Assembly (NCBI RefSeq): GCF_013315695.1
Contig: NZ_CP054353.1
Origin: Escherichia coli
GTDB taxonomy: Bacteria; Pseudomonadota; Gammaproteobacteria; Enterobacterales; Enterobacteriaceae
Strand: one strand, 5' to 3'
Length of the DNA: 64,000 bases
Below are positions 9,001 through 12,000 of this stretch, piece by piece. Position numbers: made by a program. Each line of letters begins with the position of its first letter. Position 1 is the stretch's first letter.

Positions 9001-12000
9001 CAGCATTCATCACAAAATAGAAATTTAGTATTTTATGTCAGAATACTTCACATGATAATAAAAACCTGTCTGGATTTACTGCATGGCCAGACATTACAAA
9101 ATACAAACGCCATAAACTTCATTCAGCCTTCTTGCTGTTCGGTAACGGAGGCTGCTTTTTCGTTACACCTTTCCCCGGCAGCATCAGTAGCAGTAATTTA
9201 TAGATTCTACGAACTGAGACTGTCTGTCCGGGGAGAACGTACACAGCCCGACACAATGTACCAGTCAATAATATCCGGTTTCTGATTCCCTGCCTGACAG
9301 ACCACTCTCTGGCAACTTTGTATTCAGTTCATCTACTACTGGAGACAGATTTATAAAATCCAACTCCACGATCTTTGACCGTCCGCATCCCCTACTCTCT
9401 GTGCTGCGGTCATCGGTTAATTCCAGCGTCCGTCCGTTACGATCAGATATTACTGAACCGCCCCGGGTTTCCTGGAGAGTGTTTTATCTGTGAACTCAGG
9501 CTGCCAGATCATTGTTTCCGATGGAAGCATAATAAGCTTTTTCTGCTTCTGCCGGAGGAGTATGGCCCAGCCTTCCCAGCAATCATCGATTGTTATACCA
9601 GTCCACCCACGTGAGTGTGGCCAGTTCCACTTCTGCACGGTTTTTCCAGCTCTTACGGTGTATTACCTCCGCTTTGTAAAGACCATTGATGCTCTCCGCC
9701 ATCGCGTTGTCATACGAGTCGCCTGTACTCCCTGTTGATGCCAGCAGTTTTGCTTCTTTTAATCGCTCCATATAGGCCAGTGACACATACTGAGAGCCTT
9801 TATCGCTGTGATGGATGGTGCCGGACGGACGGCGGGCCCACAACGCCTGCTCCAGCGCATCCAGCACGAATGTCGTTTCCATAGACGATGAGACCCACCA
9901 CCCCACGATGTATCCGGCAAACACATCAATGATGAACGCCACATAGACGAAGCCCTGCCATGTGCTGACGTAAGTAAAATCAGCCACCCACAGCTGGTCA
10001 GGACGTTCTGCCACGAACTGACGGTTTACGCGGTCACCTGCAGCAACGGTTTTCCGGCTGACGGTAGTGCGGACCTTTTTACCCCGGAGAACACCGGCAA
10101 GTCCCATAACCGCCATGAGGCGCGCCACTGTACATCTGGCCACCCTGATTCCTTCCCGTAACAACTGACGCCAGACTTTACGCACACCGTACACCTGATG
10201 ATTTTCATCGTATACGCGCTGTATCTCTCTCTTCAGCCAGTCATCGCGCTGCGCACGGGCACTGCGTTTATCAGGATGATGTCGCTGTTGCTGACAGTGG
10301 TAATACGTTGACGGGGCAATATGTAGTTCACTGCATACCGGTCCGACCCCGTACAGCTTACGCAGCTTATCCAGCAGTGGCATCACTTTTTCCAGAGGCG
10401 GTCGAACTCCGCCTTCGCAAAATAAGCGGAAGCCTGGCGAAGGATATCGTTACTGCGGCGCAGTTCACGATTTTCACGTTCCAGCTCTTTCAGACGCTGA
10501 CGTTCAGCGGTGGTGAGCCCGCCATCACCGCCTCCGGTATTCCGCTCATGCTGGCGTACCCAGACACGCAGAGTCTCCGGTGTACAGCCAATCTTTGGGG
10601 CAATGGAACAAATTGCCGCCCATTGTGAGTCATATTCGTCCTGACTTTCCAGAACCATACGAACTGCCCGTTGACGGACTTCGGGGGAAAAACGTGTATT
10701 TTTAGTCATCCTGTTTACCTCTTTCTCAGGGAATTTAGTCTCCAGGATTCCCGGGGCGGTTCACAGTAATCATGCCGGGTCTGGCTGGCTAACACCCCAT
10801 TATAAGGGGTACGAATAAAGTAACGGGGCTTCACGCAGGGATGGACAGATTGCTCTGATATACAGCCGACGACGTCCCGCTGCAACATCATCACGCAGAT
10901 GCTTCATTTTCAGATTTGGGACCTCCTTTTGATTTCTCGTTTAACTTTTGCTGTTACCAGACTTTAATCTATTTTAACAATTCAAGAATTTTTTATAAAA
11001 TGCTCAAAGATGAAAGCGTTACTGAACCAACCAGCTTGGCTGATGTTTTCTATAGATAAAAAGATCATCAGCAAAAACTGATAGCCTGAATCACCTTTAC
11101 TACCAATCATGTATGAAGAAAACACGCACAAACAATTGACAATGATTATCATTTGCATTAAAAGGATTATGTAGTATTTTTATTTCATGAGGAACTATAC
11201 CCGCCAGCAATCTGAGTAGCGAAAGCTGTTCATCCCCAATATTTTTGCTGGCGGGTTCTTTTTTCTACTGCCCTTCTCCTCAGAGGGAGCATTCCATTCT
11301 TTTTCTCATTAATGGCGAGGGGGCGGGACAAAAAGCCGGTTCTTTATCCCTAAATAACAGCATGATTTCAGTCCATGCAAAATCTGATTTACCAGCTCAC
11401 ATAATAACCTGATGATACATGGGTTTTCCCTGATCATGGTGGGAAGGCTCAGAACGCCATATTCAGTTTCCCGTAGTGGAACATCACGCCCAGCTTAAAG
11501 CGCTCCCGATTTCGGTATCCCCTGGCTTTTATCCTCAGTAGCCTGATCTTACTGTTAAGCGCCTCCGCGTTTCCGTTTGAGACACGGTGTCGCATGGCAT
11601 TCAGGATCCCGTAAAGCCTTTTTCCTATCGTTTTCGCGGCGTTTTTCATCATAGGAACGTCACTGTTGGCCGCCAGAGCCAGCCATCTCTCCCAGTCATT
11701 ACGTCTTTCCTCACTCCATGGCCTGTTCCAGATATCCTTTGCCAGCTCTTTCAGCGCCCAGCACTGGCTTGTCAGCTTCATCTGTGCACGCAGCCATATC
11801 AGCTTTTCCTGCCTGGATTTGGTCATCCATTTATCGCTGTACTGCCACAGGAAGCGGGTCCCCTTTGCCTGACGCCAACTTTCAACAGGGAGGTGCGGAT
11901 GTTCATTCTGACGGGTTTTATCAACCACTTCGCCAAGTTGCTTTGCTACATGGAAGCGGTCGAAGGCGATTTTCTCAACCGCACAGGGTAAGTGGATACG

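Follow-up and report, generated by a model that had tools for sequence, protein, structure and literature searches.

The only IS629-family insertion sequence in the 64,000-nucleotide stretch of Escherichia coli DNA that was analyzed here (the window) very probably is a fixed, decaying copy in a pheV-type ExPEC virulence island, with a phage Rz remnant and an ISEc20 stub on one side and papI, at the end of the pap operon, on the other, and bearing in orfB a stop codon that arose in place. The element is an ordinary IS pseudogene that already is known as such, PGAP having annotated it in those genomes with the TGA allele that were inspected.

The element lies on the minus strand and measures exactly 1310 bp. 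A scan of the window with the 14-bp terminus TGAACCGCCCCGGG, for which 0.33 matches were expected by chance, located perfect copies at both ends of the element. The left (IRL) and right (IRR) inverted repeats share 23 of their 25 positions, and the length and the imperfect TG...CA inverted repeats are those by which IS629 is recognized (Table 1). IS629 and its isoforms IS1203 and IS3411, which occur in O157:H7, Stx phages and Shigella sonnei, resemble the window copy in the 1310-bp length, the TG...CA ends and the 25-bp inverted repeats, and also in the arrangement of orfA and orfB in phases 0 and -1, the ALIL pseudoknot, for which IS3411 provided the first description, and the HTH and DDE domains. 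The window copy aligned colinearly with two phage elements of the O157 type that bear the annotation IS629, those of CP-1639 and VT2phi_272, with 47 differences in 1310 positions. Isoforms are defined in ISfinder practice by at least 95% nucleotide identity to the reference IS629, and the value for the window copy, measured against the phage-annotated copies, was 96.4%. On this measure, the window element is an isoform of IS629 and not the canonical sequence. Sub-types of IS629 differ by 4–5%, with IS1203 and IS3411 treated as isoforms (Rump et al., 2011; PMC3271280). As the identity of the window copy falls inside this spread, the copy belongs within the IS629 family. In contrast to IS629 of the O157 type, the window copy possesses an opal stop at Arg268, encodes an OrfB of 267 instead of 296 amino acids, and differs by the 47 substitutions. 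It also lacks a 3-bp target duplication, and its orfA/orfB overlap reads AAAAAG whereas canonical IS629 has AAAAAA. No second copy of IS629 was found in the window; a terminus match with one mismatch at position 51335 is without surrounding IS629 homology.

Table 1. Features of the IS629-family copy and its immediate border, in window coordinates.
Feature	Position	Strand	Basis
IS629-family insertion sequence, full length, 1310 bp	9454..10763	-	Perfect 14-bp termini; 100% identical to MSB1_4I pseudogene locus
IRL, 25 bp, starts TGAACCGCCCCGGGAATCC	10739..10763	-	Terminus scan; 25-bp IS629 end features annotated in CP-1639
IRR, 25 bp, 23/25 identical to IRL	9454..9478	-	Terminus scan
orfA, intact, 108 aa, HTH_Tnp_1	10383..10709	-	Pfam PF01527, E=1.9e-12
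orfB frame, start to normal TAA	10386..9496	-	Translation
Truncated orfB, 267 codons + TGA; HTH_21, rve core and DDE-K residues kept	9583..10386	-	Translation, Pfam, alignment
Premature opal stop TGA; CGA (Arg268 of OrfB, residue 376 of 404-aa OrfAB) in intact copies	9583..9585	-	Alignment
Orphaned orfB 3' end, 28 sense codons + normal TAA, in frame	9496..9582	-	PGAP CDS model reaches same TAA
ALIL (apical loop-internal loop) frameshift-stimulating pseudoknot, full length	10312..10428	-	Rfam RF01497, 116 bits (gathering score 50), model 1-117 of 117
TTTTG, candidate -1 slippery motif, element 342-346	10418..10422	-	At 5' end of ALIL model
AAAAAG, candidate -1 slippery motif, orfA/orfB overlap, element 373-378	10386..10391	-	Motif scan
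Patch attributed to gene conversion, element 162-512	10252..10602	-	Holds 20/20 differences from common allele
ISEc20 (IS110 family) terminal fragment, 65 bp, abuts IRL	10764..10828	+	Last 65 bp of 1457-bp ISEc20 in F11

The coding organization also is that of IS629, with two open reading frames that overlap at positions 10383–10386 and a predicted -1 frameshift signal. The frame change of the PGAP-style fusion protein is located about at the TTTTG motif. Domains PF01527 in OrfA and PF13276 and PF00665 in OrfB were matched, and residues D135, D194, E230 and K237 of OrfB are conserved. The opal stop occupies element positions 1179–1181. Downstream of it the frame continues through 28 sense codons (LLGRLGHTPPAEAEKAYYASIGNNDLAA) to a TAA at 9498..9496, the TGA being 29 codons ahead of this normal terminator. 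The orfB gene of reference elements does not end at the same position: in the CP-1639 and VT2phi_272 copies of IS629 it is 891 nt in length, encodes 296 amino acids, and has CGA where the window copy has the stop. When the arginine was restored, OrfB was almost identical to the B part of the intact 404-aa OrfAB of S. sonnei. Thus far, the initial annotation, which had described a full-length IS629 of 1310 bp with both terminal repeats and a premature TGA in orfB followed by an open frame to the normal C-terminus, stood up well; its sole real error was the position of the stop, which it had placed about 35 codons early. Apart from the TGA, the window copy seems to have no inactivating lesion, and the uninterrupted 404-aa OrfAB that is taken as a criterion for autonomy is broken by this stop at orfB codon 268. 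The identical sequence in MSB1_4I carries the PGAP label 'IS3 family transposase; programmed frameshift; internal stop'.

The distribution of the TGA allele was assessed in 5,426 complete E. coli genomes by using an E-value cut-off set such that only perfect matches passed. The exact 83-mer around the TGA was present in 675 genomes at 680 places, 678 of them chromosomal, with a maximum of two per genome; the allele is single-copy in 670 of the carriers and has a second copy in five. The exact junction of IRR with its flank was recovered in 689 genomes and that of IRL in 633, and the whole locus with 600-bp flanks in 589, these counts resting on exact 83-mers or 200-mers that miss alleles with nearby SNPs and hence not being strictly additive. 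Carriers of the TGA allele include the ST131 strains EC958 and JJ1886, as well as Nissle 1917, ABU 83972 and VR50. All eight chromosomal copies that were inspected are located between the Rz remnant and papI, and the order Rz remnant, IS and papI together with the PGAP 'internal stop' was noted in MS10860, EC958, Nissle 1917, ABU 83972 and LS4. The window is 99.95% identical to the pheV-type island of MSB1_4I, with 30 mismatches and 2 indels, none of them in the IS or in the sequence directly beside it. The MSB1_4I island contains Ag43, iuc/iutA, sat, iha and pap. A literature search for IS629 together with papI produced nothing relevant to the Rz/papI locus.

A 200-mer that joins the same flank to the IS, but has CGA in place of the TGA, matched exactly in 97 genomes. 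In the two of these that were examined, CFT073 and ATCC 25922, the flanks are identical to those of the window on both sides, and the copy is at the same Rz/papI locus and of the same element lineage. As the same insertion exists with CGA, the TGA arose in place after the element had inserted. A single C-to-T transition converted the CGA (Arg) of orfB codon 268 into TGA. The orthologue that CFT073 and ATCC 25922 carry differs from the window copy in keeping CGA at codon 268 and in a few private substitutions. It likewise is a pseudogene, which has lost 1 nt at element position 700, measures 1309 bp and is labeled by PGAP as 'frameshifted'. Judged by these alignments, one ancestral insertion was inactivated twice and independently, and two independent lesions at one insertion are the pattern of neutral decay.

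The surroundings of the element record further change. A target-site duplication of 3–4 bp is absent, the flanks being CTG and GTA; among the control elements, the IS629 copy in VT2phi_272 has a TCA duplication and the copy in CP-1639 has none. An empty site was sought with concatenated flanks of 200 + 200 bp, which were joined in none of the 5,426 complete E. coli genomes. The ISEc20 stub that abuts IRL is present on one side only, and the remainder of ISEc20 is absent from the locus. The complete 1457-bp ISEc20 of F11 has an uninterrupted insertion site elsewhere in the window, at ~49987–49995. The lack of a duplication, the lack of an empty site and the one-sided stub thus point to a later rearrangement, and the arrangement of the locus indicates that IS629 would have inserted into ISEc20, followed by deletion or rearrangement on the IRR side.

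The common fossil allele, represented by EC958, Nissle 1917, ABU 83972 and LS4, shares the locus and the TGA with the window copy. The window copy and the EC958-type allele differ at 20 positions, all within element positions 162–512, with no differences in 513–1310; across the latter interval the common allele is identical to the window copy apart from one change in Nissle 1917 at position 1304. The Rz-side flank of the window has one difference in 1349 bp from the EC958 type. The divergent tract is 100% identical to a variant of IS629 that is common on E. coli plasmids, and in MS10860 the tract from this type of donor is longer. The plasmid-type variant is a 5' fragment that ends near position 795 beside a group II intron (ltrA). 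This ~795-bp fragment with ltrA is widespread, examples being pECAZ146_1 and the chromosome of WP7-S18-ESBL-09, and it provides the closest match to the patch. From sequence comparison, the 351-bp patch specific to the window copy is the product of gene conversion with other IS629 copies.

The consequence of the stop for the transposase was considered by alignment of 30 diverse IS3-family OrfB proteins with 41–61% identity to the query, residues being numbered from the MPLL start. The four DDE-K residues occupy conserved columns and all are upstream of the stop. The arginine at the stop position is at least 90% conserved, and the lost tail holds the invariant P277 and a glutamate, E281, that is at least 90% conserved. 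Owing to the stop, the Pfam rve_3 match breaks off at profile position 55 of 67 and rve_2 no longer is matched. In an AlphaFold2 model with a mean pLDDT of 89.4 and a pTM of 0.81, in which residues 261–290 scored 91–97, the missing segment comprises a short loop and the terminal helix 277–294. Foldseek searches with the model recovered the fold of retroviral integrase, TnsB and IstA; a search by sequence for a solved structure of an IS3-family transposase found none. The copy still could produce OrfA, and with the -1 frameshift signal intact it would yield a 375-aa OrfAB and an OrfB that are each 29 residues short and devoid of the near-invariant arginine, the invariant proline and the helix that closes the DDE catalytic domain. 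Loss of transposase activity and of autonomy is the likely outcome on the basis of the alignment and the model, the copy most likely being unable to transpose itself and being carried along with the island as a single-copy fossil. The truncated protein still has the DDE-K residues and every DNA-binding domain and may therefore have residual or altered activity.

The retention of the HTH, HTH_21 and DDE core regions raises the question of whether the shortened OrfAB or OrfB is functional and kept by selection, one conceivable role being trans-dominant inhibition of IS629 transposition, or whether readthrough of the UGA supplies some full-length enzyme. OrfB of IS629 has been reported to make transposition less frequent (Chen and Hu, 2006, cited in PMC5771124), the allele is widespread in 675 genomes, and the frame beyond the stop is still open. 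Nevertheless, the orthologue in CFT073 and ATCC 25922 was destroyed by an unrelated frameshift, which fits neutral decay and not selection for a product, and hitch-hiking with the pap/iha/sat/iuc island accounts for the spread of the allele. Beyond the stop, the open frame extends for only 87 nt and provides no signal, as in element positions 513–1310 the window copy is the same as the four EC958-type copies compared, bar the one change in Nissle 1917. The context of the stop, UGA-U, is an efficient terminator in E. coli, and the element has no known recoding signal. Both a selected product and readthrough therefore appear very unlikely, and decay of a fixed copy is the favored interpretation.

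The initial annotation had judged the copy probably non-autonomous, although potentially mobilized in trans. The first judgment agrees with what can be inferred from the loss of the near-invariant arginine, the invariant proline and the terminal helix, the interruption of rve_3 and the essentially single-copy state of the allele. Multiple identical copies, a further criterion for autonomy, were not observed, with one copy in the window and a solitary TGA allele in nearly all carriers. Concerning the second judgment, the ends are intact and no case of movement came to light. We attach very little credence to the proposal that the transposase of intact IS629 copies regularly moves the defective copy as an active, non-autonomous element. 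Both inverted repeats are intact, other IS629-family copies reside in many carrier genomes, and the 680 places in 675 genomes signify that a few second copies exist. However, the allele is present exactly once in 670 of these genomes, in contrast to IS629-family matches at up to 49–53 places per genome. Among the plasmids in PLSDB, the TGA allele occurs on pE2022-9 alone, within a segment captured from the island (TetR, DUF1471, IS, papI, IS1 and papX). In PEC1013, which was the one examined of the five genomes with two copies, the second IS629 variant lies 6.5 kb from the locus copy, is 94.7% identical to the window copy and is without target duplication. It has in common with the fossil just the 3' tract, element positions 1137–1302, the TGA included, and an IS21 element interrupts the locus copy itself at element position ~514; the two copies in PEC1013 are in segments 18850–20159 and 25345–28789. 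As the second copy matches the fossil in the 3' tract only, it is attributed to gene conversion and not to transposition. Neither the PLSDB plasmid nor PEC1013 thus furnishes evidence of mobilization in trans, and the locus is best described as a fixed copy that is decaying in situ. Finally, a single-base difference in principle could be erroneous, but the notion that the TGA is a sequencing or assembly error in a truly intact IS629 has practically no chance of being correct and is ruled out by recurrence of the exact 83-mer in 675 independently assembled complete genomes, with 'internal stop' annotated in every TGA-bearing locus that was inspected.

Several other single-stop pseudogenes are present in the island in the window. 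The iucA gene for aerobactin synthase (37655–39379, minus strand) has an internal stop at codon 394 that is identical to that of the MSB1_4I pseudogene, and the aerobactin operon of the window island may be non-functional. A different IS3-family transposase gene (24023–25555, minus strand) and a YfjI-family gene (51150–52640, minus strand) are nonsense pseudogenes with stops at codons 154 and 186, respectively. The pap operon, which spans approximately positions 1–8500 of the window as mapped from MSB1_4I 910774–918940, is degraded in the near-identical MSB1_4I: papC has a frameshift, an IS1A insertion cuts papF short, and only a fragment of papG is present. The window has three SNPs inside papC (4928, 4955 and 5229). 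Rfam matches were detected on either side of the IS629 copy, namely, the Hfq-binding RNA STnc490 (10926–11048, minus strand; 65.5 bits, gathering score 56) and, on the other side, AS-pc02 'antisense to pHK01_099' (9083–9261, plus strand; 56.5 bits, gathering score 40). IS102 RNA (54948–55152, plus strand) gave a strong Rfam match of 259 bits. The window also contains a pair of inverted repeats of 923 bp (15103–16025 and 41672–42594) that are ~95.7% identical and probably are fragments of another IS3-family element; at these repeats in MSB1_4I, the PGAP annotation gives two IS3 transposases, one of them intact and the other partial.

Pseudogenes of insertion sequences are routine in pathogenicity islands, and the window copy as such is of little importance. 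It does urge caution in annotation, as full length and intact ends are not equivalent to activity when copies of IS629 are counted. The conversion patches reveal that dead IS copies go on swapping sequence with plasmid-borne relatives. Whether the dead copy exchanges sequence in both directions with live IS629 by conversion, and so passes its stop to other IS629 elements and inactivates them, as was seen once, in PEC1013, or whether its truncated OrfAB or OrfB is a trans-dominant inhibitor, or both, is a speculation that we consider to have only a slim prospect of proving correct; if it were true, the dead copy would act from within the genome to restrain the expansion of IS629 in ExPEC. The R268* allele in ~675 genomes and the position-700 deletion in CFT073 and ATCC 25922 are mutually exclusive, and the two lesions are possible markers of pheV-type island lineages.
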